Assembly: GCF_049075655.1 (NCBI RefSeq)
Contig: NZ_CP157522.1
Span: 192,001-256,000, forward strand
DNA length: 64,000 bases
Reading direction: 5' to 3'
DNA from: Methanothermococcus sp. Ax23
GTDB lineage: Archaea; AGJL01; Methanococci; Methanococcales; Methanococcaceae
Of the stretch, positions 1-64,000 are shown in pieces. The position numbers and the translations under genes were made by a program. The notes beneath the pieces are model-generated. The model was not told the origin of the DNA. It was given only the letters and a program-made list of their open reading frames with translations, and made no database searches. How positions within the stretch are numbered: position 1 is the first letter of the stretch; each line of letters starts with the position of its first letter.

Positions 1-945
1 TATATCATTATCTTCTATTTTTTTATTTACCTTTTGATATTTGTCAAAATTACATTCATCTGGAATTTGTATATACTCAGTATATTCTTTTATTTTTTTC
101 AAAGAATATCCTGATAGTTTTTGATATGTATTATTGATTTTTTCTTTCAATTTTGATGATACATTGTAATAATTTTCTACCAAATGATTATGAAATTTTT
201 TAATATCGGAATATTTTTGATTATTCGCTTTTGAAATAATTTCTAATACTTCATATTCACTATTATTTATTTTTAGTGTATTATAACGATAATCCAACGT
301 TATTAAGTTAGACAATAAACAATTTAATAATTTTTCATGTTCTATCTCGTATTTTATCGCCAGAAATGGCAACTCCCTATCTTTTAATTTAAAAGTTATA
401 TCGCCCCACTCTTCCCAGTCAATTGAATCAATTCCAACAAATTCTGAAAATTTATTTGATTTATCACGCTCCCAAACTTTAACGACAATGTTATCATCTA
501 GTATTTTTAATTTTATGAACCTTATCAAACCTTTCTTTGATATTAACGTATTTATTCTCTTTAATTCATCTTTTTCTTTACTCAATCCATCTAATTTTGA
601 GCAATGAATTATAAATATACTATTCTCTTTTGGTTTTATAATTACAGTCAATGATTTATTTAGCCCTTTTCCATTACCTCTTATAGCACCCTGCTCAAAG
701 TCATTCATTAATAATTCTGCCAGCATTTCATAATATTCAATATTTAGAAATCTTATGGAAAAGTCTTTCCAATTTTTTGGTAGGTTAGTTTCATTGAAAT
801 CATATTCTTTATTTGTTCTATCTTCACAAAATTTTATCATGTCTGAAATATATTCCTCAGATTCTCTATTTAATTGCTCTTCAATTATTTCAGAGTCTTC
901 TACAATACCATTTTTGAAAAAAACAATAATGTCATTATTTTTCAT
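1..945 (-). CDS. Hypothetical protein downstream of hsdS (runs off the window; not in ORF track)
   Basis: ATG at 945 after the RBS GAGGAGGGG; open to the window edge (MKNNDIIVFFKNGIVEDSEIIEEQLNRESEEY...), at least 315 codons. Confidence 0.8.
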   Translation of the reverse strand, partial: MKNNDIIVFFKNGIVEDSEIIEEQLNRESEEYISDMIKFCEDRTNKEYDFNETNLPKNWKDFSIRFLNIEYYEMLAELLMNDFEQGAIRGNGKGLNKSLTVIIKPKENSIFIIHCSKLDGLSKEKDELKRINTLISKKGLIRFIKLKILDDNIVVKVWERDKSNKFSEFVGIDSIDWEEWGDITFKLKDRELPFLAIKYEIEHEKLLNCLLSNLITLDYRYNTLKINNSEYEVLEIISKANNQKYSDIKKFHNHLVENYYNVSSKLKEKINNTYQKLSGYSLKKIKEYTEYIQIPDECNFDKYQKVNKKIEDNDI

Positions 946-968
946 ATCTACCCCTCCTCATTTAAATA

Positions 969-2168
969 TTAAACTAATTCCCCCTTAAATGCTTTATTTA
1001 AAATACTTTCTTTTAATTCTTTGAATAGGTTTAATTGTTTTTCTTGTAGTTGTTCTAATTTTTTTATTTTGTTATGTAGATTGTCTAAATATTCGGCGAT
1101 TTCTTTTTGTTTTTGTAGGTCTGGTTTGTTGTCTTTGTATGGGATAGGGATTAAAAGGCTTTCAAATTTTTTCTTAGTTATATGTTTCATGGTAGAACCA
1201 TGAGTTTTATCTGTAATACTCTTCAATATAGGCTTAATCGCGAAATACATATATTTTTTATCAATATATTCATTTTTCAACTCCACTTTAAAAATATGTT
1301 GATTTAATAGAGCCTTTCCACCACTCCAAATATATGCGTCAATTGAAGCAGACCACGATATTAGCAAATCCTCATTTTGAATATAGTATTTTTTTTCGAC
1401 AGGTTTTGAACAATAATTATATGGTGCGTTTGGATTATTTAAATTTTGAATTCTAATTATGGGTAGTCCCGTCTCTTCCCATTCAGAAGGCTTAAAAGCT
1501 CGTCCATTTATATATTTCCCCACATCTCCCAATCTAACCAATTTAAACCCTTCATCTTTAAAAACCTTATTTAAGACAGAATTAAATAAATCCTTTGTTT
1601 CATTTAATGCTTTTTGTCTTAATTCTATTGCTTTGTTAATATTGTTAAAGAGAGTTTCTATTTTATTAACAATTTCCTTTTGTTTTTGTAGGTCTGGTTT
1701 GTTGTCTTTGTATGGGATTGGGATTAAAATTTCTTTTAATTTTTTTGCATTAAAATTTGGTTTAACTCCTCCACTCGGCACTATTTGACTCCAATAATAT
1801 TTAGATTTAAAAAACATGTCTAAATAATAAGGATTAACAACATCTAAATTAGGTTTAATTTTTATCAGATAGGAAGCAAAAATTACGGGTTCTGAAAGAT
1901 TTTCTTTAATTAAATATGTTTTACCTGTTGTTGAACCAGTCCTTGCAAAAAGTATATCTCCTTTCTTTAAAATATATCTACTTATATCTTTTTCTGGCTT
2001 GCAATATGGGACATTCTCCCAATTTACATTGTTATCTTGTATATCAGTAATTCTTAAAAGTTTTATTCCAGTATTTTCTTTTAGAGCTTTTGTAGTGTAG
2101 CCATATTGTGGATTTTCTTTTAATAAATCTTCCAATCTAACCAATTTCCAACCATCTGGCAATTCCAT
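969..2168 (-). CDS. hsdS: Type I restriction-modification specificity subunit
   Basis: ELPDGWKLVRL start, two TRDs, repeated conserved segment IPIPYKDNKPDLQKQKEI, C-terminal LKESILNKAFKGEL. Confidence 0.97.
   Translation of the reverse strand: MELPDGWKLVRLEDLLKENPQYGYTTKALKENTGIKLLRITDIQDNNVNWENVPYCKPEKDISRYILKKGDILFARTGSTTGKTYLIKENLSEPVIFASYLIKIKPNLDVVNPYYLDMFFKSKYYWSQIVPSGGVKPNFNAKKLKEILIPIPYKDNKPDLQKQKEIVNKIETLFNNINKAIELRQKALNETKDLFNSVLNKVFKDEGFKLVRLGDVGKYINGRAFKPSEWEETGLPIIRIQNLNNPNAPYNYCSKPVEKKYYIQNEDLLISWSASIDAYIWSGGKALLNQHIFKVELKNEYIDKKYMYFAIKPILKSITDKTHGSTMKHITKKKFESLLIPIPYKDNKPDLQKQKEIAEYLDNLHNKIKKLEQLQEKQLNLFKELKESILNKAFKGELV
1099..1729. repeat. 58-bp direct repeat inside hsdS (1099-1156 and 1672-1729)
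   Basis: ATTTC(T/C)TTTTGTTTTTGTAGGTCTGGTTTGTTGTCTTTGTATGGGAT(A/T)GGGATTAAAA, 2 mismatches. Confidence 0.9.
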
Positions 2169-2178
2169 AATTTAACCC

Positions 2179-3684
2179 CTATAAATTACTTTTTATCTCT
2201 TCAATTATATTTTTAATATTAACATCAATCTCTTCAATCTCTTTTACAACTTCATTAGGTTCTTTATATTCGATTTCTTCTTTTTTATTTGGATTTTTGG
2301 CAGTTAAATCATAATCTCTTTTTTTAATCTCGTCAATGGAAACAATCCAACTATTTTCAGAAATTTCACGATTTTTAATTTTATTCAAAACATCCTCAAA
2401 ATCTTCATCTTTTATCCTTTGTTTTTTCGTATATTTGCCCTCTAACTCATAATACCAAATTTCTTTGGTTTTTCCCGTCTTCTCAAAAAATACAATATTT
2501 GTTTTAACTCCTGCTCCCATCTGACTAAATACACCCTGCGGTAGTGAGACAATGGCAAAAACATTAAATTTATTTAAGAGCTCTTCCCGAATTGTTTTGA
2601 ACTTTCCACCACCGAACATTATTTGACCCTCTGGAAGAATAACTCCTGCCCTTCCTCCATTTTTTAACTTCCTCATTATATATTGAAGTGCTAATGCCTC
2701 CGTAGATTGTATTTTGTGGGGGAAATTATCCTGAACCTTTTTATTCTCCCTACCACCAAATGGCGGATTTGTAATAATTATATCGTATTTTTCACTTTCT
2801 GGAACATTATGAACATCCTCATCTCCTAAGGAATTTCTCCTATAATAATTAGGAGTTAAAATGCCGTGCAAAACCATATTCATAGTCCCTAATAAATAAG
2901 GAAATGGCTTTTTTTCATGCCCATAAAGTGTTTTATACATCAAAGTTTCATGCTCTTGAACTGTCATCAATTCCCCGAGCTCATTCTGAATATATTTTAA
3001 TACCTCAATTAAAAAACCAGCAGAGCCTCCAAATGGGTCAAATACTTTTTCTCCTATTTTTGGTTTTATCACATTAATAATAAATCTTATAATAGGTCTC
3101 GGCGTATAAAATTCTCCGCCCCATCCTGCTTCATTACCCATATTTAATAGGAGCTCCTCATATATTTGAGATAAAACATGAGTATCCTCATAATCATCAG
3201 TATTAATATTATCAATTTTATTTATTACATCCACTAAATTATAAGTGGATTTCATTTTATTTCCTGAAATTTCTTTAAAAATGCTTGCAATTTTCTCCCT
3301 CCCGGGTGTTCCTTCCAAACTCCTCAGATATGGAAACAAAATATTATCTATGAAATAAACTAAGGTATCCTCTAAATCTTCTATTTCTTTAATCTCTTCA
3401 TCAACATCATCAACAAAATCCTTTAAACTCTCCTTAGGTTTTCCTATCCAGTCTCTTTTTGCCCAGTTTGACCATCTATATTTTTTATCGATTATGGGAA
3501 TATATTCCCTACCATCCATTAAAGCAGTTTCCTCCAACTCCTTTTCAACACTTTCAAACACTTTTAAAAACAAAAGCCACGACAATTGTTCCATATAATC
3601 CATAGCCCCAGAAGTTCCGTCGTCCTTTCTTAATATATCACATGCGGATTTTACTTCGCTTTTCACTATTGATTCTCTTTTCAT
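2179..3684 (-). CDS. hsdM: Type I R-M N6-adenine methyltransferase subunit
   Basis: GEFYTPR, DPFGGSAGF (motif I), NPPF (motif IV); adjacent to hsdS. Confidence 0.97.
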   Translation of the reverse strand: MKRESIVKSEVKSACDILRKDDGTSGAMDYMEQLSWLLFLKVFESVEKELEETALMDGREYIPIIDKKYRWSNWAKRDWIGKPKESLKDFVDDVDEEIKEIEDLEDTLVYFIDNILFPYLRSLEGTPGREKIASIFKEISGNKMKSTYNLVDVINKIDNINTDDYEDTHVLSQIYEELLLNMGNEAGWGGEFYTPRPIIRFIINVIKPKIGEKVFDPFGGSAGFLIEVLKYIQNELGELMTVQEHETLMYKTLYGHEKKPFPYLLGTMNMVLHGILTPNYYRRNSLGDEDVHNVPESEKYDIIITNPPFGGRENKKVQDNFPHKIQSTEALALQYIMRKLKNGGRAGVILPEGQIMFGGGKFKTIREELLNKFNVFAIVSLPQGVFSQMGAGVKTNIVFFEKTGKTKEIWYYELEGKYTKKQRIKDEDFEDVLNKIKNREISENSWIVSIDEIKKRDYDLTAKNPNKKEEIEYKEPNEVVKEIEEIDVNIKNIIEEIKSNL

Positions 3685-3824
3685 ACTATCACCTTTAACA
3701 TCCTAAAATACATAATAACATTACACTAATATGTAAAATACGGTAAAAAATTATAAAAATATTTTTTATACCCTCTTTAAAATTATAAAACTCTAAAAAA
3801 TAGAAAAAAGAATAAAAAATAAAC

Positions 3825-4025
3825 TTATTCAACCGTAGCAAAGCGAGTGGGCTATAAAATCCGTTAGGATTTTATTCAATCGGAGCGAAGCGGAGAGCTA
3901 TAAAAATCCCAAAGGGATTTTTATTCAATCACATCGAAGATGTGAGCTATAAAAATTACTTCGTAATTTTTATTCAACCACGAGCAAAGCGAGTGGGCTA
4001 TAAAATCCGTTAGGATTTTATTCAA
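3825..4025. repeat. Tandem array of four 47-49 nt double-hairpin modules
   Basis: Units 3833-3879, 3880-3928, 3929-3977, 3978-4025, each hairpin1-GCTA-hairpin2-TTCAA; the last unit overlaps the guaA stop codon. Confidence 0.9.
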
Positions 4026-7243: not shown

Positions 7244-7558
7244 TTATTGTTCAGATGTTAATTTATAAATACTTTCCGCAACCTTTATCCATCTAATGTA
7301 TGAATACAACGATGCCTTTAAAATACTGAGCTCATCTGCAACAGTTTCTATAAATATTATGTTATTTTCAATTTTCATAATGCTCTTTGACCTTATCTGA
7401 GAATCAAGATGTTCTAAAAGTATGCTATCGTATATTATTTTTGCTTCATCTTCTGAACTGCATTCTATTTCCAAACTAAAAGATATATCAGACTTATGAT
7501 TAAATTTATCCACATTTATATTCAATTTACCCGCAGCATTAGATGTATTGGTGTTCAT
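7244..7558 (-). CDS. pcc1: KEOPS complex subunit Pcc1
   Basis: EAKIIYDSI...RS...I.A..LSILKASLYSYIRW pattern; sits before pfdB. Confidence 0.85.
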   Translation of the reverse strand: MNTNTSNAAGKLNINVDKFNHKSDISFSLEIECSSEDEAKIIYDSILLEHLDSQIRSKSIMKIENNIIFIETVADELSILKASLYSYIRWIKVAESIYKLTSEQ

Positions 7559-7622
7559 GATATCGTTTTTATTTATCTTTTTTATTTAACATATTTCCGC
7601 AAGAAGTCCCCACCCGTAAGGG

Positions 7623-7668
7623 ATTGAACAAAATCCTTCGGATTTTGTAGCCCTTCGCTTCGCTACGG
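7623..7668 (-). repeat. Double-hairpin module inserted into the IS left-end hairpin
   Basis: Minus strand CCGTAGCGAAGCGAAGG-GCTA-CAAAATCCGAAGGATTTTG-TTCAA-T; removing it restores CCCACCCGTAAGGGTGGG. Confidence 0.8.
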
Positions 7669-7746
7669 TGGGATGAATTGCGGACAAAATATATAAATGG
7701 TATAGTGATAACATACTATTTATAAGTTATCAAACTGTGATGCCCA

Positions 7747-8997
7747 ATGATAAGGACTTACAAGTTCAGGATTTATCCTTCAAAGAGTATCCAAAGAACA
7801 ATAGAGGAGCATCTAAATATATGTAGATACCTTTATAATTATCTTTTGGAACAAAAAACTAAGAATCCAAAACTAAACAAAATGGATACTCAAAAACTAA
7901 TTACAGAGCATAAGAGGGAGAATCCTGAACTTAAAAAAGTCCATTCAAAAGTATTACAGATGGTAAATAACAAGCTTTGGGGAAATCTCAAAGCATTAGG
8001 GGAACTAAAAAAGAATGGATTCAAAGTGGGGAAGTTAAGGTTCAAATCCTCTAAAAATCATTACAAAACATTAGAATACAATCAATCAGGTTTTAAGATT
8101 GATTATAACACTAAAAAACTAAAACTATCCAAGATTGGAGAAATTCCAATAGTATTACACAGAAACATCAAGGGAGAAGTTAAAGGAGTTATTATAAAAA
8201 AAGAACCTACTGGCAAGTGGTTTGCCTTCTTCCAAGTTGAGGAGGAACCTAAACCACTACCTAAAACTAACAAAGTTGTAGGTATCGATTTAGGAATCGA
8301 TGGTTATACCATCGATTCAGATGGTAATAAATTTGAAAATCCAAAGTTTATAGATAAGACATTGGATAAAATAAAGAGAGTTCAAAAGAACCTATCCCGA
8401 AAGGTTAAGGGTTCGAACAACTATAAAAAGACCAAACTAAAACTTATCAAGGTTTATGATAAACTAAACAATCAGAAAAATGATTTTCTACATAAGTTAT
8501 CTAGATACTACATAAATAACTACGATAAAATAATTTTAGAAGACTTAAATATAAAATCGATGGTTGAAAATGGAAAATGTAAGACCTTAAACCGTCATAT
8601 TCTTGACGGTTCATGGCGTAAATTCATAAATCTACTTCTCTACAAGGCGGAGGGTGCTGGTAGAGAAGTAATATTAGTAAATCCCCATTATACTTCTAAA
8701 AAATGTTCCAACTGCGGGCATGTTGTTAAAGACTTAAAACTTTCAGATAGAATCTTTTTTTGTCCTGTCTGCGGTTGGAAAATCGATAGGGATTATAACG
8801 CATCCCTAAATATATTAAAGTCAGGGCTGGGAGAGTCCGTTGTGCCTGCCGAGAGAAAACCTCTGCTCCAAACTATTTCTTATAAAGAAGTGGTTTTGGG
8901 GCAAGTTTTCTCAATGAATCAGGAAGCCTTGCCCGAAGGGCGAGGGCTACGAAAACCGAAAGGTTTTCGTTTAACCCCGTCCGTAAGGGCGGAGTAA
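7747..8997 (+). CDS. tnpB: RNA-guided endonuclease TnpB
   Basis: N-terminal YKFRIYP HTH, RuvC motifs GIDLG, LEDL and DRDYNA, zinc finger CSNC...CPVC. Confidence 0.96.
   Translation: MIRTYKFRIYPSKSIQRTIEEHLNICRYLYNYLLEQKTKNPKLNKMDTQKLITEHKRENPELKKVHSKVLQMVNNKLWGNLKALGELKKNGFKVGKLRFKSSKNHYKTLEYNQSGFKIDYNTKKLKLSKIGEIPIVLHRNIKGEVKGVIIKKEPTGKWFAFFQVEEEPKPLPKTNKVVGIDLGIDGYTIDSDGNKFENPKFIDKTLDKIKRVQKNLSRKVKGSNNYKKTKLKLIKVYDKLNNQKNDFLHKLSRYYINNYDKIILEDLNIKSMVENGKCKTLNRHILDGSWRKFINLLLYKAEGAGREVILVNPHYTSKKCSNCGHVVKDLKLSDRIFFCPVCGWKIDRDYNASLNILKSGLGESVVPAERKPLLQTISYKEVVLGQVFSMNQEALPEGRGLRKPKGFRLTPSVRAE
8927..8974 (+). repeat. Double-hairpin module inserted in frame in the tnpB 3' end / IS right end
   Basis: CCTTGCCCGAAGGGCGAGG-GCTA-CGAAAACCGAAAGGTTTTCG-TTTAA (48 nt); removing it restores QEAPSVRAE. 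Confidence 0.8.
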
Positions 8998-9045
8998 TTC
9001 ACTTGATTTTACGATAAAATTACATTTAATCATTATGTGGCAATA

Positions 9046-9546
9046 TTATTCGATTTCTAAAATCTTTAAAGATTTAACAATAATTAAAGGCCCTACCTTT
9101 TTATCATTTTCATAAAATTGTATATAAAATATATTCTTATCTGATGAAGAACCTTCAAAACACATCCTAAAAGGCGAATTACCATTAACTACTCCAAAAT
9201 CACTAAAAAAATCATAAAATAGTTTCCGATATTTTTTGGTGTTTCCCATGAACTCCATGCTTATTTTTCCTTCCAAATTTGCAGTTTCTTCTTCGCAGAC
9301 TTCTCTTTGAAGCTTTGCAGATATTAGTATAGATATTATTTTATTTCTATTAACATCATAAAACTTTATTTTTCCAGGGTTTCCTTTATATTCTTCTACG
9401 ACAATCAATTTGCTGTATTCATTGAGAATATCCTTTAATGGAGTTTTACCTCGAGTTAATATTTTTGCATTGAGTATTCTTGCCAAATCATTTACAAAGC
9501 TTCGTGTTCTTTGAGAAGGTTTTCTTGATGTTGTAATTACCATCAT
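9046..9546 (-). CDS. Brix/Imp4-domain ribosome biogenesis protein
   Basis: ITTSRKPSQRTRSF...RGK...GNPG. Confidence 0.92.
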   Translation of the reverse strand: MMVITTSRKPSQRTRSFVNDLARILNAKILTRGKTPLKDILNEYSKLIVVEEYKGNPGKIKFYDVNRNKIISILISAKLQREVCEEETANLEGKISMEFMGNTKKYRKLFYDFFSDFGVVNGNSPFRMCFEGSSSDKNIFYIQFYENDKKVGPLIIVKSLKILEIE

Positions 9547-9577
9547 TCTATTACCTATTGTAATATATTTTACCTAA

Positions 9578-9718
9578 TTACCTTGCTTTTACTTCTTTAA
9601 TCACTCTTGGTCTTAATTTTATCAAAATCTTATTACTACAGTGAGGACATTTTGCTTTTAAACCTAATTCCTCTTGGGTTATGATTTTACCACAATTTGA
9701 ACATTTATACTCCGCCAT
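9578..9718 (-). CDS. rpoP: RNA polymerase subunit P (Rpo12), 46 aa; not in ORF track
   Basis: MAEYKCSNCGKIITQEELGLKAKCPHCSNKILIKLRPRVIKEVKAR; GGTGA RBS; follows rpl37ae. Confidence 0.95.
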   Translation of the reverse strand: MAEYKCSNCGKIITQEELGLKAKCPHCSNKILIKLRPRVIKEVKAR

Positions 9719-9778
9719 AATTTCACCAAAAAAATAAAAAATAACTATGAATTAAATAAAATTAAAAGAAAAAATAAA

Positions 9779-10069
9779 TTAGATTTCTCTGCTCTTGCTC
9801 TCGATAACTCTTCTTATTGCCTTTGCCACTACTTTACCAGCACCTGTTTCTGGTGTGTATGCCCCACCAGCCATTTTAGCACCGCATTTTTTACAGCTCC
9901 ATATTGAAGTGCTGACTCTTTTTAATTTTGGGAATCCACAAACAGGACATTTATACTCTTTTTTCTGTTTTATTTCAACATCTCTAACTCTAACTCTAAT
10001 TTTTCTACCGTATCTTGGTCCAAATCTTCCTGCTGAACCTATCTTTTTTGTATGGCTAAATTCTGGCAT
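9779..10069 (-). CDS. rpl37ae: 50S ribosomal protein L37Ae (eL43)
   Basis: [12 protein letters not shown]...WSCKKC, GGAYTP; ATG 10069 after GGTGA. Confidence 0.96.
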
Positions 10070-10165
10070 TCTTATCACCGTTTTATTTTTTTATTTATTT
10101 TTTTACGATATGATTATATTTTCATATTCTATGTGAGATTATGTGAATTACTTCCCTAGTTTCCA

Positions 10166-10867
10166 TTAAAATCTTTTTAAGAGTTTAGTTTGAACATTGC
10201 CTTTTGTGACTTTGTTTAAATATCCGTAGAATTCATTTTCAATTCCACTTGGGATTTCAATAACAAATACCAAAGAACCATCGGACTGCCATTCCTCCTG
10301 TTTTATCGTCCCATATTCATGGAGTGAATGGTAGGCCGACGCAGCATATTCTGGCGGTATTCTAACTGCAATTTCCCTTTTTTCAAATTTAATTGGTAAT
10401 ACCCTTTTAAGGTCTTTAATAATGTTAGGAATTTGCTCTTCGGCACTTTTGTAAATATCAATATTTGCCCGTATCTCCTCCAATGCATTTTCAATTCTTT
10501 TTGGAGGATGCGGGGTGTCAGTTTGAGGGTTTATAGTGTTTCTTGCAATTAAAGAAACGATTTGTTTCCTCTTCTGTTCTTTCATCTCTTTTCTCTGCTG
10601 GGCGGTAAGCTGAACATTGCCTTTTAATATAATTTTTTTGGCTATTTCATGAATATCCATTGTTCCAAAAACTTTTTCCAGCAATTCTTCTGAAGCTTTT
10701 TCTCCTTTTCCAGAATCTTTATAAACCGCCTCAGCCGCCAGTATGTCAGAAATATCTATTGGCTGACCTTCTTTTAATTTAGCAGCTAAATAAGGGTCCA
10801 CCAATATTTCAAATTTTTCCCCATGGGATTGAAGCCGTGCAATTACAGCCTTTTCCAACGACACCAT
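10166..10867 (-). CDS. Ribosome maturation factor SBDS/SDO1
   Basis: [25 protein letters not shown]. Confidence 0.95.
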
Positions 10868-10992
10868 AATATCCCTTTTTTTTATTTATATACCTTTCGA
10901 TATAATGATTAATATTTAATAATTTACATACATCTATAAAAAATATATTGAATAAAATAAATATAAATACAGATATAAAAAGAAATAATTAT

Positions 10993-11805
10993 TTATTCAT
11001 TGTTATTTTCATCATTGTTATTTTCGTCAGTCTCATTATTGTCTTCATCCAATTCTTCTTCACTTTCTTCTTCCGCCTTTAAATCATCAAATGCCTTTTT
11101 TACAAGCTTTTCAATTTCTTCAAACGATAGTTTTTCCACAGTTTTTGCTTCTGATTTAATTACTGCCATATCTACATTTTCTGGTTTTAATTCTCCCCCC
11201 GTGGTCTTGCTCAGTGTATATATTGCAAGTTCAAGAGCTCCTTCAATTGTTAAATCTTCACTGTATTTTTCTTCAAGGATTTCCATTGCAGCAGGTCTTC
11301 CAGAGCCTATTGCTGTTGCCTTATATTCAATCAATGCTCCACTTGGGTCTGTTTCAAACAATCTTGAACTGTGTCTATCAATACCTGCAATTAATAAAGA
11401 TAAACCAAATGGTCGAGCTCCGCCATGCTGTGTGTATGCCTGTTTAATGTCGCAAATTTTTTTTGCAAGAGCCTCAACTGTTACAGGTTCTCCATAAGTT
11501 ATTTTGTTTATCTGAGCTTCCACTCTTGCCCTGTCTATTAAAACCCTTGCATCCGCTACAAGTCCAGAAGTTGCTGCCATTATATGGTCATCTATTTGAA
11601 ATATTTTCTCTATGGAGCATACTTCTATTAATTTACTTGTTATTCTCCTATCAACTGCTAAAATAACCCCATCTTTACATTTAATACCTATTGCAGTGGT
11701 GCCTCTCCTAACAGCCTCTCTTGCATATTCTACCTGATAAAGTCTTCCTTCTGGGCTGAATACGGTAATTGCCCTATCATATCCTGATGCTGGAACCATT
11801 TGCAT
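10993..11805 (-). CDS. psmA: Proteasome alpha subunit
   Basis: GYDRAITVFSPEGRLYQVEYA; acidic/Asn-rich C-terminal tail. Confidence 0.98.
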   Translation of the reverse strand: MQMVPASGYDRAITVFSPEGRLYQVEYAREAVRRGTTAIGIKCKDGVILAVDRRITSKLIEVCSIEKIFQIDDHIMAATSGLVADARVLIDRARVEAQINKITYGEPVTVEALAKKICDIKQAYTQHGGARPFGLSLLIAGIDRHSSRLFETDPSGALIEYKATAIGSGRPAAMEILEEKYSEDLTIEGALELAIYTLSKTTGGELKPENVDMAVIKSEAKTVEKLSFEEIEKLVKKAFDDLKAEEESEEELDEDNNETDENNNDENNNE

Positions 11806-27352: not shown

Positions 27353-28465
27353 TTATTCAACAATCTCCTTCAAAATCTCCAAAAACCTCTCATCCTCTTC
27401 AAAAGTTCCAATAGCAACCCTTACATAATTATCTCCAAGACCTTCAAATGAATAACAGTCCCTTACAATTACCCCTCTTTTCAAGAGCTCCTCACAAAAC
27501 TCACCTGAGCTCATGCCATTTTTAACCTCAACTAACAAATAGTTTGCCTCAGATGGATAAACTCTTAATTCTTTAAACTTCTTCAATCCTTCGTATAATA
27601 TTTCTCTGCTCCTTATACCGTCATTTTTTGATTTATTGAAAAATTCCTTATCTCTTAGTGCTGTGATGGCACAGATTTGGCTTAATCTTGTTAAACTGAA
27701 TATTGGTTTAACCCTCATCATATAATCTACGATTTTTTTACTTGTGATGCCGTAGCCAATTCTCTGACCTGCTAAACCAAATACCTTTGAAAATGTTCTT
27801 AATACTAAAACATTGTCATACTTCAATGCCCATTCTGTTAAATCGTATTCCTCTTTTGAGTATTCAATATAGGCGTGGTCTATTACCACCAACGCATCGG
27901 TTGAATTTATGATTTTTTCAATGTCCTTTTTATCAATTATATTTCCTGTTGGGTTGTTTGGGGTGCATAGGAATATAATTTTTGTTTTATCTGTAATATT
28001 GTTTAAAACACTATCAACATCCAATTCAAAATCCTTTTCCTTGTCAAATTTTGCATATTTTACATTTGCACCATATATTTTTGCAGATATTCTATACTGT
28101 GTAAAGGTAGGTATTGGAATAATTACCTCATCACCATTATCAATTAATATTCTCATCATTGTGTCTATTATCTCATCTGCACCATCTCCACCAACAATAA
28201 TATTTTCCTTCGGAGCTCCTGTGAATTTGGAGAGCTCTTCCATAAGTATTGGATTTACAGGCTCTGGGTATTGGTGGAGTTTTGGAATCTCTTTTAATAT
28301 TTCATCCTTTATTTTTGGAGAACATCCCCATGGATTTTCATTTGAACCTAATTTTATAATATCGTCTGGATTTATTCCGTAAGTTCTTGCTATTTCTTCC
28401 TTTGATTTTCCAGGAACATAAGCTTTAAAGGATTTTACTACATCTCTTATTTTATTATCTATCAT
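27353..28465 (-). CDS. hisC: Histidinol-phosphate aminotransferase
   Basis: [28 protein letters not shown]. Confidence 0.95.
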
Positions 28466-35193: not shown

Positions 35194-35361
35194 GGTGTCC
35201 CTCAATGGATAAATAACTTAATATAAAATAAATTAAAAATAAAGACCCATATATAATATAACTTGTTCAATTTATATTATTTAAATATAATAGTGTATGT
35301 GTATATGTAGGTTATATTATAATCGGAGAATATGGGTAATTAAACCAAAAAAGGTGATTTA

Positions 35362-37539
35362 ATGAAGTTAAAATATCCTAGCTTGATTCTTTGCATGATT
35401 TTTTTACTAATGAATGCAGGATATGCCCTAAATTACAAATGGACATCAACAATACCTGTTGAATTTGTCCCACTTTCAAGTATTGATAATCAAACACAGT
35501 TGGAATATTATTTAAATAAGCATAATATTGTTGTTTTTTATATGGATGAAAAATATAGTATAAAAAGTAACGATTGGATACTATATAAATTTAATATTAC
35601 AAGAGTTAGCCCAGACAAAATTCCAGACTATGGAAATTACACACTCGTAAGTAGTAATGGGGTTGTTGTATTATATCCCGAAAATAGTGTATATCGTGAT
35701 AAAGATGGGGCATTGATATACAATACACCAATGCCAGTAAATGATGTAGAATATAAAATTCAACATGTTCCCCCAGTGAAACAGGAGAAGAATAGTATAA
35801 TCCCAGATTATTATGATTATGTATTAATAAATAACGGAACATTTATCATATATCCTCAAAAATACATAACAAGGGACGACGATGGTGCATTAATTTATAA
35901 TCCTCCATTAAAACAAAATAATAGTAAAGAATACAAGATATCATATGGGAAGCATATTAATGAAAAAGTAATCCCAAATTATTATGATTATGTATTTGTA
36001 AATCAAAATAATGTTTTTGTTATATATCCTCAAAAATACATAACAAAGAACAAAGACGGTGCAATAATATACAATCCGCCATTAGATATTAAAAACGATA
36101 ATATTCCAATATATAATGTTAGCACTAAATTAATAGATGCAGAAAAAGGAGTTTATGAAATCAAACCTAAAAAAATATTGATAACGCACCCAATAAATCC
36201 AGATGACAAAAATATTTTGGATTTCATTGGATATTATGTTTCAGAAAATAACGGGACATTTGCATATATAAACAAAGTTCCACCACACTACAAACATGTT
36301 CTCATTAACGGAATAGTGGTTCAAAATGCCATCCCTGATAAAAACGGAGACTATGCAGTAGATGTTGCAGGGAGAAAGATAAAAGTCGATTTAAGAGATG
36401 ATGATTTAATAAATAAAAAGATAAAAACAGTAAAAGGACTCTCGGAGATTTTAAATATAAATGCAACCTATATATCAACAGGTTCAGAAAATTTAAAGGT
36501 TATTAAAAAAGAAAACCCTGATAAGAATGAATTGGATGCATTGTTAAATGAATATTGGTTTAAAAAATGGTATAATGATGAATATTACCATACATACTAC
36601 AACCCATCAAATATTAAAAACAATTACAATGCCAAAGATTTTGACGTATTGGCCATGAGCTATTATCCGATAATATACACCGATAAAGCACCTGAAACTT
36701 TCCAAAATGACCCAAAAGGTGGATATTACCCAGAGGTTATAAGTTATAAAGGAACTGATGATATTGGATACTGGGAAAAAGGGGTAAAATCCGATAATAA
36801 ATATTATTATTACGATAAAAATGAACCCCATTGGAATGATAACGATAAATATGTAAGTAATTGGTATTATGAAGGAAAATCCGTTTCGCCTGCAAATGAT
36901 TCTGAAATGAACGATAAATACAAATATTTCAACCAATGGTTTGTTAAAAATTATGGCTATGCAGTAAGTGAAGGTGTTGATGGATTGCTTTTAACATCTA
37001 ATGATAAAAACCTGGTTGATGCAGTGTTTGGAAAAGAAAATAATAATATATCGTGGAAACTTGCCATGGATGGCAAACTAAGTTATGTTGTAATCCCTGA
37101 TTACAAAGGAGTTTCAAAGGAAAATAACATAACAATAGTAAAAATCCCTGGATTAACCAATGACCTATATGGCATGCATTATATCAAAGAATACTATATC
37201 CCCCCAAAGGACGAAGAATTTGGAGTTTATGTGGCAGATATTGTGGAATATAACGTCAGCAAAATATATATGTTAAAGAATAACTATACGTGGATTTGTT
37301 CATTTAAAAATTATGCAGATTGGATAAATAATTATATGTATAGCAACATTAAAATAGTAAATAGCACCATAATAATTGCAAAATCTAACAATCCCATAAA
37401 AATAACTATTTACAAAAAAGGAACAAATATTACCTCCCCCGACCTGTTAAAAATACCAATGGAAGAATACGATAAGAATTCAAATAAAATAATATTATAT
37501 TGTTTTTCCAACGGGAGCTCTACAATAAAATTAAGTTAA
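35362..37539 (+). CDS. Exported Tyr/Asn-rich protein with three internal repeats
   Basis: Signal peptide; three copies of IP(D/N)Y..Y...N....(I/L)YP........DGA.IYN.P. Confidence 0.8.
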   Translation: MKLKYPSLILCMIFLLMNAGYALNYKWTSTIPVEFVPLSSIDNQTQLEYYLNKHNIVVFYMDEKYSIKSNDWILYKFNITRVSPDKIPDYGNYTLVSSNGVVVLYPENSVYRDKDGALIYNTPMPVNDVEYKIQHVPPVKQEKNSIIPDYYDYVLINNGTFIIYPQKYITRDDDGALIYNPPLKQNNSKEYKISYGKHINEKVIPNYYDYVFVNQNNVFVIYPQKYITKNKDGAIIYNPPLDIKNDNIPIYNVSTKLIDAEKGVYEIKPKKILITHPINPDDKNILDFIGYYVSENNGTFAYINKVPPHYKHVLINGIVVQNAIPDKNGDYAVDVAGRKIKVDLRDDDLINKKIKTVKGLSEILNINATYISTGSENLKVIKKENPDKNELDALLNEYWFKKWYNDEYYHTYYNPSNIKNNYNAKDFDVLAMSYYPIIYTDKAPETFQNDPKGGYYPEVISYKGTDDIGYWEKGVKSDNKYYYYDKNEPHWNDNDKYVSNWYYEGKSVSPANDSEMNDKYKYFNQWFVKNYGYAVSEGVDGLLLTSNDKNLVDAVFGKENNNISWKLAMDGKLSYVVIPDYKGVSKENNITIVKIPGLTNDLYGMHYIKEYYIPPKDEEFGVYVADIVEYNVSKIYMLKNNYTWICSFKNYADWINNYMYSNIKIVNSTIIIAKSNNPIKITIYKKGTNITSPDLLKIPMEEYDKNSNKIILYCFSNGSSTIKLS

Positions 37540-40688: not shown

Positions 40689-40895
40689 ATGGAAAGTCTT
40701 TTGAGTAAAAGCCCGGGCACATATACCGTTGTAAAAATAGCAAGCCCATGCAAAAAATTCCATGAGCTCGGCATAATTCCTGGTTCTAAAATAACAGTGA
40801 TTTCTTCAAATAAAAGGGGACCTATACTTGTAAGAATAGGAAATTGCAAAATAGCCATAGGAAGGGGCATGGCAAATTCTATACTTGTGGAATAA
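40689..40895 (+). CDS. feoA: Ferrous iron transport protein A
   Basis: ELGIIPGSKI, GPILV, IAIGRGMA. Confidence 0.9.
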   Translation: MESLLSKSPGTYTVVKIASPCKKFHELGIIPGSKITVISSNKRGPILVRIGNCKIAIGRGMANSILVE

Positions 40896-50514: not shown

Positions 50515-52431
50515 ATGAAAGGGGGAGCTCTTGTTTTAATTAGTATATTTATATATTTAGTAGCATTTTGTGGATGTATAGACAATAGTAAGGATAACGG
50601 AAATACGATAAATAAGATAAATGAATTTAAGGTAGTTCCAGCAGACGAGGCGACATTTAAAGAATTTGTTAGTAAATCAACAGCTCATAGTTATGAATAC
50701 TACAATATACTTGGTGGATTCAATACTGCATCAGGAAGAGTAAAAGCTTTACCCACAGCAGAATTAGGTATTTCCGCAGATTCAAATGGCGTAGAGCGAC
50801 ATTCTGAAACCAATGTGCAGGTAAAAAGCGTAGATGAAGCAGATATTGTAAAAACTGATGGTAATTATATTTATTTCACTCCACCGGGAAGTTATCACAT
50901 TATAAAAAATTATCCGGAATATCCGCACTCTTTTGGAGTTGAAAAAACATATATAATAGATGCCCTTCCACCAGAATCAGCAGAGATTATTAAAGATATT
51001 TCAAATGGTGGTGTGCTTTACTTGTGCAATGACAATTTAATAATAATTGACTACAACAACGATGAGATATTAAACTACAATGTTTCAAATCCAAAAAATC
51101 CAAAATTAAAGTGGAAAATGGATTTAAATGGTTCCTATGTGGATTCAAGGGTTCATAATGGAAAGTTGTATTTGATTGTATCAAAATTTGATTATATAGT
51201 TTGTCCAATAATTTGGAATGGAGTAAAAATAAATTACAATAAATACTACATTCCAATAGTTCCAGATGTTATATCAAGAGATTTCGATAGAACATATATA
51301 ATCTCTTCAATAGATGTAAATAGCGGAAATATTGAAAATACAATTGCTACATCGGGAACCTACTATACCACAACATACATGTCAAAAAACAACATTTATT
51401 TCACCTATCATTTAATACCCAATGAAAACATACTGTTTATCAACTTCTTAAAGGAAAACTCCAATAAATACTTCCCAAATAGCACTGCCGTTTTAATTAA
51501 TAAAGTTCTGAGCTCTGAGCTCTTTGGTGATGAAGCAAAGTATGTTGAAATTAGAACAATATTGGATGCATATTTCAAAACCCTTCCAAGTGAAGAGAGA
51601 ATGAATTTAATAAATAAAATAAACAAGGACTATGAAATATACCTTGAAGAACACTGGGAAGAGCTGGAAAAAACTGGGATAATGAAAATAGATATAAATA
51701 CCTTTGAAGTTAAAAGTGGGAGCGTTCCTGGAAGATTGATAAACCAATTTGCAATGGATGAATACAACAACAATTTAAGAGTTGCCACAACAATAGGGAA
51801 CTATTGGAAATTTAGAGATAAAATGACAAATAATTTGTATATTCTTGATGATGAGCTAAATATAAAAGGAAAACTTACCAATCTTGAAAAAGGAGAGCGG
51901 ATATACGCTGTTAGATTTATGGGGGATACTGCATATATTATCACATATAAAGAAACTGACCCATTGCTTGTAATAGGTTTAAAAGACCCTAAAAATCCAA
52001 AACTACTTGGGGAATTAAAAATTCCTGGATATTCAACATACTTGCATCCAATAGGAAACAATAGACTTATAGGCATAGGAAAGGGCGATGATAGAAAACT
52101 AAAAATATCGTTATTTGATGTGAGCGACCATACTAATCCAAAAGAAGTTGATAAATACAAACTTCCTGAATATTGGTCCCCTGCTCTTTACAACCATCAC
52201 GCATTTTTATGGGATAAAGATAAGAATATAATGGTAATACCTGTGGGAGCTCATGTTTATATGTTCAAAATAGAAAATGATAAAATAACAATGAAAAAAG
52301 ACGATAAACACAAATCAAATGTTTTAAGGTCATTGTATATTAACAATTACATATACACATTCTCAAACGACGAAATCCATATAATCGATGAAAACAGCTG
52401 GAATACAGTTAAAAAGATTGGATTAAATTGA
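50515..52431 (+). CDS. Secreted lipoprotein with beta-propeller domain
   Basis: Lipobox FCGC, SETNVQV..VDEADIVKTDG, LINQFAMDEY, GELKIPGYSTYLHP. Confidence 0.9.
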   Translation: MKGGALVLISIFIYLVAFCGCIDNSKDNGNTINKINEFKVVPADEATFKEFVSKSTAHSYEYYNILGGFNTASGRVKALPTAELGISADSNGVERHSETNVQVKSVDEADIVKTDGNYIYFTPPGSYHIIKNYPEYPHSFGVEKTYIIDALPPESAEIIKDISNGGVLYLCNDNLIIIDYNNDEILNYNVSNPKNPKLKWKMDLNGSYVDSRVHNGKLYLIVSKFDYIVCPIIWNGVKINYNKYYIPIVPDVISRDFDRTYIISSIDVNSGNIENTIATSGTYYTTTYMSKNNIYFTYHLIPNENILFINFLKENSNKYFPNSTAVLINKVLSSELFGDEAKYVEIRTILDAYFKTLPSEERMNLINKINKDYEIYLEEHWEELEKTGIMKIDINTFEVKSGSVPGRLINQFAMDEYNNNLRVATTIGNYWKFRDKMTNNLYILDDELNIKGKLTNLEKGERIYAVRFMGDTAYIITYKETDPLLVIGLKDPKNPKLLGELKIPGYSTYLHPIGNNRLIGIGKGDDRKLKISLFDVSDHTNPKEVDKYKLPEYWSPALYNHHAFLWDKDKNIMVIPVGAHVYMFKIENDKITMKKDDKHKSNVLRSLYINNYIYTFSNDEIHIIDENSWNTVKKIGLN

Positions 52432-53501: not shown

Positions 53502-53563
53502 TCGGAGCTCCGAAGAAGTATCATATAAATAATTTTACAATGTTCTTCACTTGGTTCTAAATG

Positions 53564-59223: not shown

Positions 59224-59304
59224 GTTTTCACCAATAAATATTTATATACCATGATGATAATATAACAGGGATGTAAAATGAATATATATTTACTCGTATG
59301 GTAA

Positions 59305-59379: not shown

Positions 59380-59496
59380 TATTTTTTATAACACTCGTTT
59401 CTTAGGTTCCAAACCTTACGAAGTAAGGTTTGGACTTTGGATGGCAACCTTTTTTAAAGGTTGCGTTTGAATCCCTCCGGGCTCGTATTTTTATAA
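59364..59496 (+). repeat. Duplicated tRNA-Arg 3' end (att-like) flanking two hairpins
   Basis: AATCCCTCCGGGCTCGTATTTTT at 59364 and 59470; hairpins 59408-59434 and 59444-59464. Confidence 0.85.
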
Positions 59497-59525
59497 TATT
59501 TTTATATCATATTTTATAAAATAAT

Positions 59526-60080
59526 TTAATCATCATTTTTTATGGCTATTTTTAATACTTTTTCTAAATTATTTAAATAGGTAGTATAATCTCCCTCATT
59601 AATAACAACATAATCAGCCAAAGATATTACCTTTCCAATGGAAAACTCCAATTCTCTTAAATCCCTTTCAACAAATTTATCCCATTCTGATGTATCATCT
59701 TCTCTTTTTCTTGATTTTAATCTGTTAAATCGGGTTTTCGGTGAAGAATGTATTGCTATAATTGTTAATGGATGGGATTTTCTAAAATAATTAACCTCAT
59801 ACATACTTCGTATGCCCTCTATGATAACTATTTCTTCGTTATTATAATTTTCCTCTATATATTGAAGGCATGGAACTGCTACTGCCTCGTTTCCATACTT
59901 CTTCCTTAGTTCCACTGCTGTATTTCCTACATTTTCGGGATTTAATTCCAATCCCTTTTTCATAGTTTCACGACGAACTACGTCCCCCATAGAAATTACT
60001 GGTATATTGTATTTTCTTGCTATTTCTATTATTGCACTTTTTCCAGAGCCTGGCATTCCTGTGATACCTATCAGTTTCAT
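59526..60080 (-). CDS. UPF0200 / dephospho-CoA-kinase-like P-loop protein
   Basis: [25 protein letters not shown]. Confidence 0.85.
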
Positions 60081-60089
60081 GTTATCTCC

Positions 60090-60284
60090 TTAATTCACCG
60101 TCTTTAATACGTTCATTGTGGCATCCGATGTTTTATTTATTGCATCAATATTTGTATTTTTAATGTTTATTGCGGATTTGAGCATATAATACCCAAGCAC
60201 CGCCGCTGCGGTTATACCTGCAAACATGAGAATAGAAAATTCTAAGCTAATCTGCCCTCTACAAGAGCATATTTTTTTTATCAT
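60090..60284 (-). CDS. Class III signal peptide pilin-like protein
   Basis: RG/QISLEF cleavage motif followed by a hydrophobic helix. Confidence 0.85.
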   Translation of the reverse strand: MIKKICSCRGQISLEFSILMFAGITAAAVLGYYMLKSAINIKNTNIDAINKTSDATMNVLKTVN

Positions 60285-60372
60285 AAAACCACCAAAGTTA
60301 TGATAAAGTATATTTAATTAAATATGGTATATGTTATTCTTTTTATATAAATAATTTAATTCTGGTGATATT

Positions 60373-62874: not shown

Positions 62875-62882
62875 TATATATT

Positions 62883-63638
62883 TTATCTTGTTTTATTTAG
62901 GAAGTAATCTAGGAATACTGTACCACCACCATAGCATGCTGGTTTTGGATGCAGTGATAAATAGAATTGGTATTGTGAATTATCATAATCAAATAATGCT
63001 TTGATTTCTTGGAATTTAATTTCATTTTTTGGAATATACCATGTATATTCGTTATTTGTGATTTTTTCAATAGTGCCGTTTGGGTAAATTAATTTATCAG
63101 TTAATATTATGGTATAATTATGTTTAAGAAGTACCTTCATAGAGTCATTACTTAATGCCCATGCAGGTGGAAGAAACAATGTCATATTATCAAACCCACA
63201 TTTTGACATTATAATTTCGGCATTGTAGAGTTTTTTTGAACATACACTTTTTGAACAGTTGAATTCGTGATAAGTATGTTTATAACCATGAAGTTCAACT
63301 TTATACCCTCTATTTTCTAATTGATGCAGATAATTAACAAATTCTTTATTTTTTCTTAAATCCCATTTTCCACCACTAGATGGGTTTTCAAGATCTGGAA
63401 TTACAAATAAAATGGTATTATTGCTGTAATTGTATTTATCAATAATTGGTATAATTTCTTTCAATTCATCAAAATATGCTGGACTTATATCATGTATCAG
63501 AATTATTGGCTTATTTTTTTGTTGGGAATTGGATATATTCCATAAATGCGAATTATTTAAATGACATGTGTTAAAAGATGCCGCTATTGTCAATAAAATT
63601 AACACTAATACGATTATTGGATATAATATTTTTTTCAT
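62883..63638 (-). CDS. DUF2334 polysaccharide-deacetylase-like protein
   Basis: IHDISP, LFVIP, LHGYKH, FLPPAW, SLHP; N-terminal anchor. Confidence 0.85.
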   Translation of the reverse strand: MKKILYPIIVLVLILLTIAASFNTCHLNNSHLWNISNSQQKNKPIILIHDISPAYFDELKEIIPIIDKYNYSNNTILFVIPDLENPSSGGKWDLRKNKEFVNYLHQLENRGYKVELHGYKHTYHEFNCSKSVCSKKLYNAEIIMSKCGFDNMTLFLPPAWALSNDSMKVLLKHNYTIILTDKLIYPNGTIEKITNNEYTWYIPKNEIKFQEIKALFDYDNSQYQFYLSLHPKPACYGGGTVFLDYFLNKTR

Positions 63639-63647
63639 ATTGCCCCC

Positions 63648-64000
63648 CTATCGAGTTTCATTTAAAAAATAATCTAAAAATTTCAACCCTCCTCCATAAT
63701 TTACAGCTTTTGGATGGATTGATAAACAAAACTGGTGTTGTGAAGTTTTATAATCTGAAACTGCCAATAGTTCAACAGTTTTTGTAAGATTCTTAGGTAA
63801 ATACCAAGTATATTCTTTATTCGTAATTATAATCCTTTTAATAGAATTATTTTCCTTTTTTAATATATTGGGGCCTACGATAATTGAGATATTTTTATCT
63901 AGAAATACCTCTTCTGCGTCCTTTGATAATCCATACCTCGGTGGAATAAAGTATTTTATATTTTTAGTATCAAACCCGCAATCTTCCAATATTTTAAATG
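63648..64000 (-). CDS. DUF2334 paralogue, 3' part (start outside window)
   Basis: FIPPRY, ITNKEYTWY, LSIHPKAVNYGGG..FLDYFLN.TR, closely similar to the neighbour. Confidence 0.85.
   Translation of the reverse strand, partial: FKILEDCGFDTKNIKYFIPPRYGLSKDAEEVFLDKNISIIVGPNILKKENNSIKRIIITNKEYTWYLPKNLTKTVELLAVSDYKTSQHQFCLSIHPKAVNYGGGLKFLDYFLNETR

Follow-up and report, generated by a model that had tools for sequence, protein, structure and literature searches.

Over-representation of the palindrome GAGCTC in a subset of Methanococcales genomes, and what may maintain it

The uptake signal sequences (USS) of the Pasteurellaceae and the DNA uptake sequences (DUS) of the Neisseriaceae are non-palindromic words of 9-12 nt, which are present about once per kb, act in a graded manner, and whose bias on DNA uptake has been shown experimentally. 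Another abundant word is HIP1 (highly iterated palindrome 1; GCGATCGC) of cyanobacteria, for which, in the available portions of two studies (PMC5861425, PMC4390886), the exact palindromes are described as 15-300-fold over-represented and as occurring about once per gene. The present work concerns the hexamer palindrome GAGCTC in a 64,000-nucleotide stretch of DNA from Methanothermococcus sp. Ax23 (viz. G000:C1:192001-256000, hereafter the window), and in the entire genome from which this stretch derives (G000; 1,662,948 + 7,732 bp), where this hexamer is greatly over-represented.

GAGCTC shares several characteristics with HIP1. Both are exact short palindromes that are over-represented at least 15-fold in genes as well as in spacers, are conserved at orthologous positions beyond the synonymous background, have flanks that extend the palindrome, and are missing from some related lineages, which have other motifs or none. 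However, variants differing at one position are uncommon for GAGCTC whereas they are common for HIP1 according to the accessible text of Elhai (PMC4390886), and the 10-90 kb periodicity reported in the part of PMC5861425 that was available is absent for GAGCTC. Further, GAGCTC is a 6-mer of other sequence than GCGATCGC, it is present in an archaeon (a methanogen), and no orphan methyltransferase co-occurring with it was found among four Pfam families. With USS and DUS it has in common a density of about 1 per kb in coding and non-coding DNA, lineage-specific 'dialects', a lower frequency in recently acquired DNA and a measurable effect on peptides; in addition, USS and DUS accumulate by drive without methylation, as may also be the case for GAGCTC. 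It differs from them in being a palindromic 6-mer with little information in its flanks and with a coefficient of variation of spacing of 1.09. A comparison can also be made with the Dcm/Vsr system of E. coli (CCWGG), from which the mechanism favoured below is taken by analogy, and where site-specific correction likewise would favour one short palindrome over its one-off neighbour and leave a local footprint with no effect on the surrounding tract. However, for GAGCTC no match to a C5-methyltransferase is seen in G000 or the related genomes G003, G010 and G012, Vsr has no match in any of the 41 genomes searched, the excess is large (17-fold) and not modest, and the neighbouring word that deamination would produce appears little depleted (0.88 of expectation). 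Lastly, GAGCTC is the SacI site, its core AGCT is of the AluI type, and its all-or-none specificity is like that of restriction; within the same group, genome G005 avoids AGCT in the classical manner and G000 avoids many other palindromes. However, restriction targets are normally avoided, whereas GAGCTC is enriched. Overall, GAGCTC resembles both HIP1 and the uptake sequences, and is a member of neither family.

Our literature search found no paper pairing GAGCTC with the Methanococcales and no title or abstract on an excess of GAGCTC in archaea, this search not extending to supplementary tables such as the REBASE cluster tables of PMC10609329. In the available text of the 2015 HIP survey of Elhai (PMC4390886) neither 'archaea' nor 'GAGCTC' occurs, the accessible portion of a survey of DNA-structure patterns names Methanococcus for tandem repeats only, and the sections at hand of surveys of archaeal restriction-modification (R-M) systems, including PMC10609329, do not mention a GAGCTC excess. 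The methylome of Methanococcus aeolicus PL15/Hp, as given in excerpts of PMC10113651, comprises CTAG, GTNAC, GCACY, CGAG and ACGT, and GAGCTC is not mentioned there.

Excess of GAGCTC, its controls and its specificity

In the window there are 81 exact GAGCTC sites, dispersed over positions 1..64000 with the first at 2578 and the last at 62145. The number obtained in 100 dinucleotide-preserving shuffles was 3.77±1.61 (largest 8; 0 of 100 reached 81), and the zero-order expectation at 31.4% GC is 4.6. An earlier note on this DNA, made from the sequence alone, had counted about 80 sites against about 4 expected, and this observation is confirmed, the effect being stronger than the note had supposed; the examples that it named (27485, 27507, 38522, 51510, 51517 and 62073) are each GAGCTC. 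The excess is not limited to the window, as the genome contains 2089 sites compared to 124.7 expected (16.7-fold), 4 of them on its second contig of 7.7 kb. GAGCTC ranks first of the 4096 hexamers by observed/expected in the genome, the hexamers just below it (AGCTCC and GGAGCT) being its own overlaps, and it is also first under the maximal-order Markov model (z = 21.7), where the expectation of 1306 already contains GAGCT and AGCTC; z-scores under Markov models were among the checks that the earlier note had proposed. In the parts of G012 and G013 that were covered, no other hexamer has a higher z either. Several other GC-rich hexamers of G000 reach 4-8 fold.

The earlier note had named two findings that would undo its claim, viz. 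that the excess is explained by the frequency of AGCT, or that it disappears after dicodon-preserving shuffling. The first of these does not hold, as the AGCT tetramer is at expectation both in the window (183 vs 186) and on the chromosome (5049 vs 4900; 1.03). Of the 5049 chromosomal AGCT, 2085 sit within GAGCTC, and among the sixteen NAGCTN words GAGCTC alone is high, the remaining ones being at 0.3-1.3. Codon usage was controlled using a gene set from simple open reading frame (ORF) calls of our own (at least 100 aa; 1513 genes covering 85% of the chromosome), in which the synonymous codons were shuffled within each gene for 30 rounds. The coding sites number 1928, whereas these shuffles gave 186.8±14.8 (largest 218). 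Sites are present in all three frames, as had been stated in arguing that codon bias was an unlikely cause: on the chromosome 1092 are read as GAG-CTC, 616 as nGA-GCT-Cnn and 220 as nnG-AGC-TCn, with 158 outside ORFs, and the corresponding numbers for the window are 42, 25, 12 and 2 (intergenic). In the synonymous shuffles the three coding frames gave 82, 81 and 23. This control is conservative, because the motif itself inflates the pool of codons that is shuffled. For the GAG-CTC frame, preserving dicodons in the shuffle would be circular, and therefore the synonymous shuffles and non-coding DNA were used in its place, the latter being decisive. DNA outside our ORFs contains 158 sites compared to 9.3 expected (17-fold; 5.6 under a first-order Markov model), and spacers of up to 250 bp, which have a GC content of 19%, contain 56 compared to 1.27 expected (44-fold). 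The 180 hexamers of the same composition have a median of 65.5 coding and 9 non-coding copies, compared to 1928 and 158 for GAGCTC. AGCT at expectation, the synonymous shuffles and the non-coding enrichment together exclude AGCT frequency and codon bias as the cause.

The extent of the excess is evident from its effect on codon choice. Of the 3903 Glu-Leu pairs, 1092 are written as GAGCTC, more than with any other dicodon, although GAG accounts for only 25% of Glu codons and CTC for about 7% of Leu codons; 39% of the 2807 CTC codons come directly after GAG. A dispersed repeat or miniature inverted-repeat transposable element (MITE) was also considered and rejected. The flanks of GAGCTC carry at most 0.22 bit per position, and hardly any further out than ±3 bases, and each copy has a context of its own, which is true even for the 10-mer CGGAGCTCCG with its 35 copies (0.08 expected). 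What information the flanks do carry tends to lengthen the palindrome: GGAGCTCC is present 331 times compared to 3.2 expected and TGAGCTCA 167 times compared to 14.4, and symmetric flank pairs are seen at 46% of the non-coding sites compared to 29% expected from half-site frequencies.

The preference is all-or-none, the perfect hexamer alone being favoured. Words that differ from GAGCTC at one position are at 0.5-1.2 of the zero-order expectation, and fall below this range only where they contain GATC or GCGC, which are avoided genome-wide in any case. The T-containing neighbour GAGTTC/GAACTC is at 0.88. The one-off Glu-Leu dicodons are few (GAACTC 58, GAGCTT 53, GAGCTA 50, GAGCTG 38) and, relative to two-off forms, they follow codon use, the GAACTC:GAACTT ratio being 58:284 and that of CTC:CTT outside the motif 1715:7279. 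When 1092:58 is compared with GAG:GAA outside the motif (~0.30), and 1092:53 with CTC:CTT (~0.24), the bias for the last step to GAGCTC is, by our own arithmetic, ~60-90-fold, which corresponds to a scaled coefficient near 4. The constraint is also point-like, because third-position identity to G012 or G013, and GC content at third positions, are flat beyond the adjacent codon.

Conservation, turnover and genomic distribution of the sites

Among the 40 Methanococcales genomes of the comparison set, the enrichment is limited to 5, viz. G000 (2089 sites), G012 (2070), G010 (1645), G003 (1321; 1.4 Mb, 90% complete) and G013 (1515), the last of which belongs to another genus. The remaining genomes, some of similar GC content, contain 4-229 copies. 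A maximum-likelihood tree was quickly made from a single helicase (window 60373-62874), using the best-matching loci returned from 30 genomes and SH-aLRT support only. In this tree, four of the enriched genomes form the clade (G010,(G012,(G000,G003))), every member of which is enriched. The sister clade, (G008,(G005,(G004,(G009,(G006,G011))))), has no enriched member, and G013 is placed as the sister of the non-enriched genus g3. Based on this topology from a single gene, it can be provisionally stated that at least 2 changes of the enriched state are needed. In G005, a relative from the same genus of which 53% (800 kb) was compared, AGCT is present 283 times compared to 2607 expected, and it is because of the avoidance of AGCT as a whole that this sequence contains just 4 GAGCTC.

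The closest comparison is with G012, which is syntenic with G000 at a nucleotide identity of ~80%, and from which 400 kb were compared, yielding 262 reciprocal-best orthologues at 86% amino-acid identity. GAGCTC is kept in G012 at 323 of 409 aligned-codon sites (79%), compared to 71% identity of third positions. If only conserved Glu-Leu pairs are considered, GAGCTC is retained in 181 of 209 cases (87%), compared to 64% for GAATTA and at most 58% for other dicodons. The same codons are retained to very different extents inside and outside the motif: CTC 84% vs 23%, GAG 85% vs 49%, GCT 94% vs 66%, and AGC 89% vs 49%. Within the window, 41 of the 45 sites aligned with G012 are in common; for G013 this number is 14 of 70, and for G005 it is 0 of 40 (for G003 and G010 the comparison consisted of site counts and searches for genes alone). 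For G013 the comparison covers 94% of its genome (1118 orthologues, 74% amino-acid identity), and GAGCTC is present there at 370 of 1569 G000 sites. Where Glu-Leu is conserved in G013, it is encoded by the motif in 31.1% of cases if G000 has the motif and in 13.5% elsewhere (odds ratio 2.9, p = 7e-18). This overlap can be due either to some common inheritance or to a shared positional propensity. G005 has 1 of 805 G000 sites. At the motif positions of G000 it has GAACTT or GAACTC in 50% of cases compared to 18% elsewhere, which fits either ancestral sites that decayed while AGCT was being avoided or a precursor role of CTY codons. GAG+CTN dicodons are nearly missing at Glu-Leu in this genome.

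Besides being conserved, the sites also turn over. Between G000 and G012, 86 sites are specific to the former and 90 to the latter. In the outgroup G013, the motif is present at 6 of 69 and 8 of 71 such lineage-specific positions (9-11%) compared to 73 of 284 common ones (26%), and because G013 seldom has the motif there, most of the lineage-specific sites look like gains. At lineage-specific Glu-Leu sites, the partners show an excess of one-off and CTN forms and little GAATTA; the gains are stepwise.

The motif also has an effect on the proteins. The observed/expected ratio of Glu-Leu is 1.20, 1.23 and 1.15 in G000, G012 and G013 compared to 0.90 in G005, while that of the reversed Leu-Glu is 0.89, 0.86 and 0.97 compared to 1.06, and that of [GR]-A-[LPHQR] is 1.83, 2.09 and 1.51 compared to 1.17; however, G005 is no neutral control for these statistics because it avoids AGCT. 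Glu-Leu encoded by the motif is conserved as well as other Glu-Leu, whereas the tripeptides encoded by the motif in frames 1 and 2 show lower conservation in G013 and G005 than do rough controls (for G013, 0.45 vs 0.63 and 0.27 vs 0.46).

Along the genome the density of GAGCTC is 1.25 per kb, with a mean spacing of 797 bp and the coefficient of variation noted earlier, and the variance/mean of site counts in 20-kb bins is 1.17. No periodicity was detected, the top spectral peaks being below the 95% level of 500 random placements. Very short gaps are under-represented (27 gaps of up to 20 bp vs 52 expected), and among pair distances of up to 300 bp, multiples of three are favoured (373 vs 219 and 222), as the dominant reading frame would predict. 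The density is 1.51 sites per kb in genes with a G013 orthologue compared to 0.82 per kb in those without a G013 match, of which 118 of 212 have no GAGCTC at all. Low-GC gene clusters that lack G013 homologues account for most of the largest site-free stretches, examples of which are C1:113848-124946, 1342927-1355393, 809168-816163 and the type III R-M locus. GAGCTC is thus of lower density in accessory, low-GC DNA and therefore partly marks native versus acquired DNA; the suggestion of the earlier note that it could serve as such a marker holds to this extent, the sites being sparser in accessory genes, and the marking is only partial.

Candidate proteins and possible causes

The earlier note had proposed that the excess might be driven by methylation-coupled repair and that an orphan methyltransferase, or a Vsr- or Mig-type repair gene, might co-occur with it. 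Neither proposal is supported by the gene searches, in which four Pfam families were scanned for the methyltransferases. No C5-methyltransferase (PF00145) match was found in G000, G003, G010 or G012, and a regular-expression search for C5-methyltransferase motifs in the G000 proteins found none. G000 has six candidate DNA methyltransferases, viz. a 300-aa SPPY enzyme (candidate 'a'; C1:1437541-1438443), a type III Mod ('b'), the HsdM of the window ('d'), two type IIG-size proteins ('e' and 'i') and a 567-aa gamma-class enzyme ('f'), and none of them was found in all five enriched genomes by these scans. Candidate 'a' is present in G003 and in seven g5 genomes, and is not found in G010, G012 or G013; its orthologue in G003 (G003:C37:1957-2847, 92% identity) has an in-frame TAA and may be a pseudogene or reflect an assembly error. 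Candidate 'f' is found in G003 only, while 'b' and 'e' have no counterpart in G012 or G010 in the family scans. Candidate 'i' is present in G013 (78%) and, as its N-terminal half only, on a plasmid of G012, but it is not found in G003 or G010, yet it is found in the non-enriched G005, G006, G011 and G030. The window HsdM is not a candidate cause, because type I enzymes read bipartite sites and no HsdM-size N6_Mtase match is seen in G010. In the family scans G012 has two HsdM genes and the plasmid type IIG gene, and G010 has one 453-aa PF01555 protein. The weak matches 'c', 'g', 'h' and 'j' seem to be methyltransferases that act on RNA or protein ('j' being Trm5-like), and weak PF00145/PF01555 matches of 350-360 aa are homologues of Trm5-type tRNA methyltransferases. 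Vsr (PF03852) was found in 0 of 41 genomes, while 3 of 14 controls were positive (E. coli, B. subtilis and Caulobacter). The enriched genomes have no extra copy of the Mig-type HhH-GPD family (G000, G010 and G013 have one, and many relatives two). RE_SacI (PF09566) was also found in 0 of 41 genomes, but as no control genome matched either, this result is uninformative.

The reading which we consider the most plausible, although tentatively, is that GAGCTC may be a genome-wide, actively maintained tag, an archaeal highly iterated palindrome that owes its abundance to a methylation-independent fixation bias, either drive or weak selection. Its starting points are the observed enrichment, specificity, conservation, continuing gains in at least two species and clade restriction, all of which point to a preference at the level of DNA and not of codons, together with the lack of a common recognisable methyltransferase or Vsr in the searches described above. 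If the bias is of this kind, then changes that make or keep the exact hexamer would be fixed far more often than the synonymous alternatives, in coding as well as non-coding DNA. A symmetric, probably dimeric, protein would read the duplex hexamer with a specificity like that of a restriction enzyme and bias its transmission; such a reader is suggested because the preference is all-or-none and local and the flanks extend the palindrome. The step at which it acts may be a biased correction, of the very-short-patch type, of heteroduplexes between motif and near-motif during gene conversion between genome copies. A short-patch correction drive of this kind, for which no methylation is needed, is a plausible, if still tentative, mechanism, and it is given slight preference because of the all-or-none specificity, the point-like footprint and the possible amplification by ploidy and gene conversion. 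A transmission bias also fits better than a position-dependent function, because a bias independent of neighbouring sites gives near-Poisson spacing and a density proportional to opportunity. Drive would account for both of these properties, for the tracking of DNA age by density, and for the distortion of the proteome.

Several considerations weigh against this interpretation. The one-off variants are only mildly depleted (0.5-0.9), which is less than a strong sink might give. Known drives of the Vsr type give far smaller excesses, and high ploidy with gene conversion is assumed from relatives. No candidate reader or repair protein was found: a synteny screen for genes present in G000 and G013 and missing from the syntenic locus in the 53% of G005 covered gave 12 genes, with no nuclease- or methyltransferase-like gene among them, and an HTH-like 173-aa protein from this screen was rejected as it is widespread (30 of 41 genomes). 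Further, conservation of sites in HIP1 has been taken by Xu et al., in the portion of their paper that was available (PMC5861425), as indicating selection and not biased repair, and for GAGCTC selection and drive are not separable with the present data.

The explanation that comes second, by a small margin and although it is somewhat unlikely, is that GAGCTC is a self-DNA tag for DNA exchange or recombinational repair, comparable to USS/DUS or Chi, where a receptor or a nuclease-helicase would prefer DNA carrying GAGCTC, alleles with the motif would be preferred in uptake or recombination, and the tag would build up to about 1 per kb. The observed density of 1.25 per kb equals that of the bacterial uptake sequences, and the presence of sites in coding and non-coding DNA, their sparseness in accessory DNA, the distorted proteome and the lineage-specificity, which is like that of a dialect, are all in accordance with such a tag, for which no methylation gene is needed. 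Near-identical mobile genes in both enriched lineages (an MNT-type gene at 99% and a type IIG gene at 90.5%) are compatible with DNA traffic. However, the known uptake sequences are asymmetric, graded words of 9-12 nt whereas GAGCTC is an all-or-none palindrome of 6 bp, the spacing of the sites is no more even than random, and no receptor candidate was found. The genus g3, which on an unconfirmed reading is the naturally competent genus Methanococcus, is not enriched. HIP1 is now itself proposed to be an uptake signal in the accessible part of PMC13756078. No archaeal uptake sequence was found in our literature search.

A maintenance coupled to methylation, as suspected for HIP1, is less likely still. 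Here an orphan methyltransferase acting on GAGCTC or AGCT, together with linked repair or strand discrimination, would restore or select the site. The precedents for this are that the abundance of HIP1 accompanies orphan methyltransferases for CGATCG and GATC (Elhai 2015, PMC4390886, in the text available), that orphan m4C methyltransferases for AGCT persist in several archaeal orders (as stated in the accessible sections of PMC10609329), and that in a related methanogen the methyltransferase M.MaeIII was missed by standard annotation (PMC10113651, as excerpted). Because M.MaeIII escaped annotation in this manner, and only four Pfam families were scanned here, an enzyme of an unrecognised family may have been missed. 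The avoidance of AGCT by G005 also indicates that AGCT-specific systems circulate in the group, and the inner G/C pair is where single differences between G000 and G012 are commonest (21 of 43 once symmetrised, a weak signal), which is the position that a C-methylase would make deamination-prone. However, in addition to the missing PF00145 match, every G000 candidate fails on its distribution, G012 shows only type I enzymes and the plasmid type IIG enzyme, and Vsr was found in none of the 41 genomes. Further, the deamination product GAGTTC/GAACTC appears little depleted by its zero-order expectation (0.88), although among Glu-Leu dicodons GAACTC is rare (58 vs 1092), and no periodicity of the HIP1 type is seen.

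It is improbable that GAGCTC is an architectural signal of the nucleoid or chromatin, i.e., a site kept by selection because it binds or positions some abundant DNA-binding protein. The sites are conserved within and between genes, as in HIP1, for which a nucleoid role was argued by Xu et al. (PMC5861425, available in part), and a palindrome with symmetric flanks suits a dimeric binder; however, there is no periodicity or regular spacing, the density tracks opportunity and DNA age and not position, the sister lineages do without GAGCTC with one of them removing AGCT altogether, and no lineage-specific DNA-binding protein was found in the screen over 53% of G005. Lastly, a compositional by-product, whether of codon usage or dicodon usage, of how frequent AGCT is, of other words being avoided or of a dispersed repeat family, is hardly tenable, for although GAG-CTC is the commonest frame (1092 of 1928), other GC-rich hexamers are at 4-8 fold and the strong avoidance of many 4-mers narrows where G and C can sit, the synonymous shuffles gave 187 compared to 1928, all frames and non-coding DNA are enriched, AGCT is at 1.03, hexamers of the same composition are far rarer, the contexts are unique, and relatives of similar GC content hold 4-229 copies.

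Features of the window and significance of the motif

The window begins with a site-free stretch (1..2577, minus strand) comprising the 3' part of a 556-aa ORF without a Pfam family and then hsdS (969-2168, minus strand; Pfam Methylase_S). As the earlier note had stated, neither hsdS, nor the ORF over 1-945, nor the tnpB element contains GAGCTC. The adjoining hsdM (2179..3684, minus strand), encoding the type I methyltransferase subunit, is the sole DNA methyltransferase gene of the window and has 3 sites. The tnpB gene (IS605-type OrfB; 7747-8997, plus strand), whose product has OrfB_IS605, Cas12f1-like_TNB and HTH matches, is part of the largest site-free stretch of the window (7334..11234, 3.9 kb). 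The second such stretch (33699..37514, 3.8 kb) is within two large divergent ORFs without a Pfam family (32671-35205, minus strand, 844 aa; 35362-37539, plus strand, 725 aa), each of which has one site and a G013 homologue, at 46% and 53% identity, respectively. Two pairs of sites are close together: at 27485..27512 the sites at 27485 and 27507 are 22 bp apart in one gene, in frames 0 and 2, and at 51510..51522 the sites at 51510 (frame 2) and 51517 (frame 0) are 7 bp apart, a gap seen only 3 times in the genome. The two intergenic sites are at 40764..40769 and 53505..53510. Elsewhere in the genome, some intergenic sites overlap likely ribosome-binding sites, where GGTGAGCTC is followed a few bases on by ATG (G000:C1:34227, 353647, 375901), and the motif and translation signals can thus have bases in common.

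A gene for an MNT-type nucleotidyltransferase (NTP_transf_2) of 101 aa (G000:C1:190804-191109) is located about 0.9 kb upstream of the window start. Its protein is 99% identical to its G013 counterpart, compared to a genome average of 74%, and has no tblastn match in the 53% of G005 covered; from these identities it appears that a gene of toxin-antitoxin type was recently transferred between the two enriched lineages. Similarly, the C-terminal 2 kb of candidate 'i' together with the next gene show 90.5% DNA identity between G000:C1:355534-357513 and G013:C1:17810-19776, which suggests that 'i' is a mobile module with swapped target-recognition parts. G005 has a 257-aa PF01555 methyltransferase (G005:C1:47542-48153), which might be an AGCT enzyme. 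In G000 and G012 several words are avoided, CTNNAG (515 vs 4900 expected) and GTNNAC (256 vs 4900) very strongly, and also GATC (0.03), GTAC (0.07), ACGT (0.10), CTAG (0.14), CTGCAG (18 vs 124) and CTCGAG (8 vs 124). As three Pfam scans of G012 show only type I and one plasmid type IIG methyltransferase, either many restriction systems escape the models or this avoidance is historical.

In practical terms, the tag flags recently acquired DNA, and because codon-pair and peptide statistics are distorted by it, codon optimisation and composition-based binning should take it into account for these organisms. The enriched lineages appear to include cultured thermophilic methanogens. Why one short palindrome fills some genomes has been an open question since HIP1, and the debate on it is based on cyanobacteria alone. 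GAGCTC provides an independent case in another domain, with a shorter word whose specificity is easy to read and with no obvious methyltransferase partner, and it offers natural contrasts, with enrichment in five genomes, chance-level counts in some sisters and avoidance of the AGCT core in others. These attributes make its cause testable by comparative genomics and simple experiments. It is possible, although doubtful, that GAGCTC is the first archaeal 'self-DNA' tag, a methylation-independent hexamer palindrome that would be written by a new sequence-specific drive acting through correction or through uptake and recombination. If this is true, then a drive strong enough to make rare codons the commonest encoding of Glu-Leu, and to reshape the proteome, would operate in these organisms, and two separate methanogen lineages would have acquired or retained the tag, with their sister lineages either losing it or coming to avoid AGCT.

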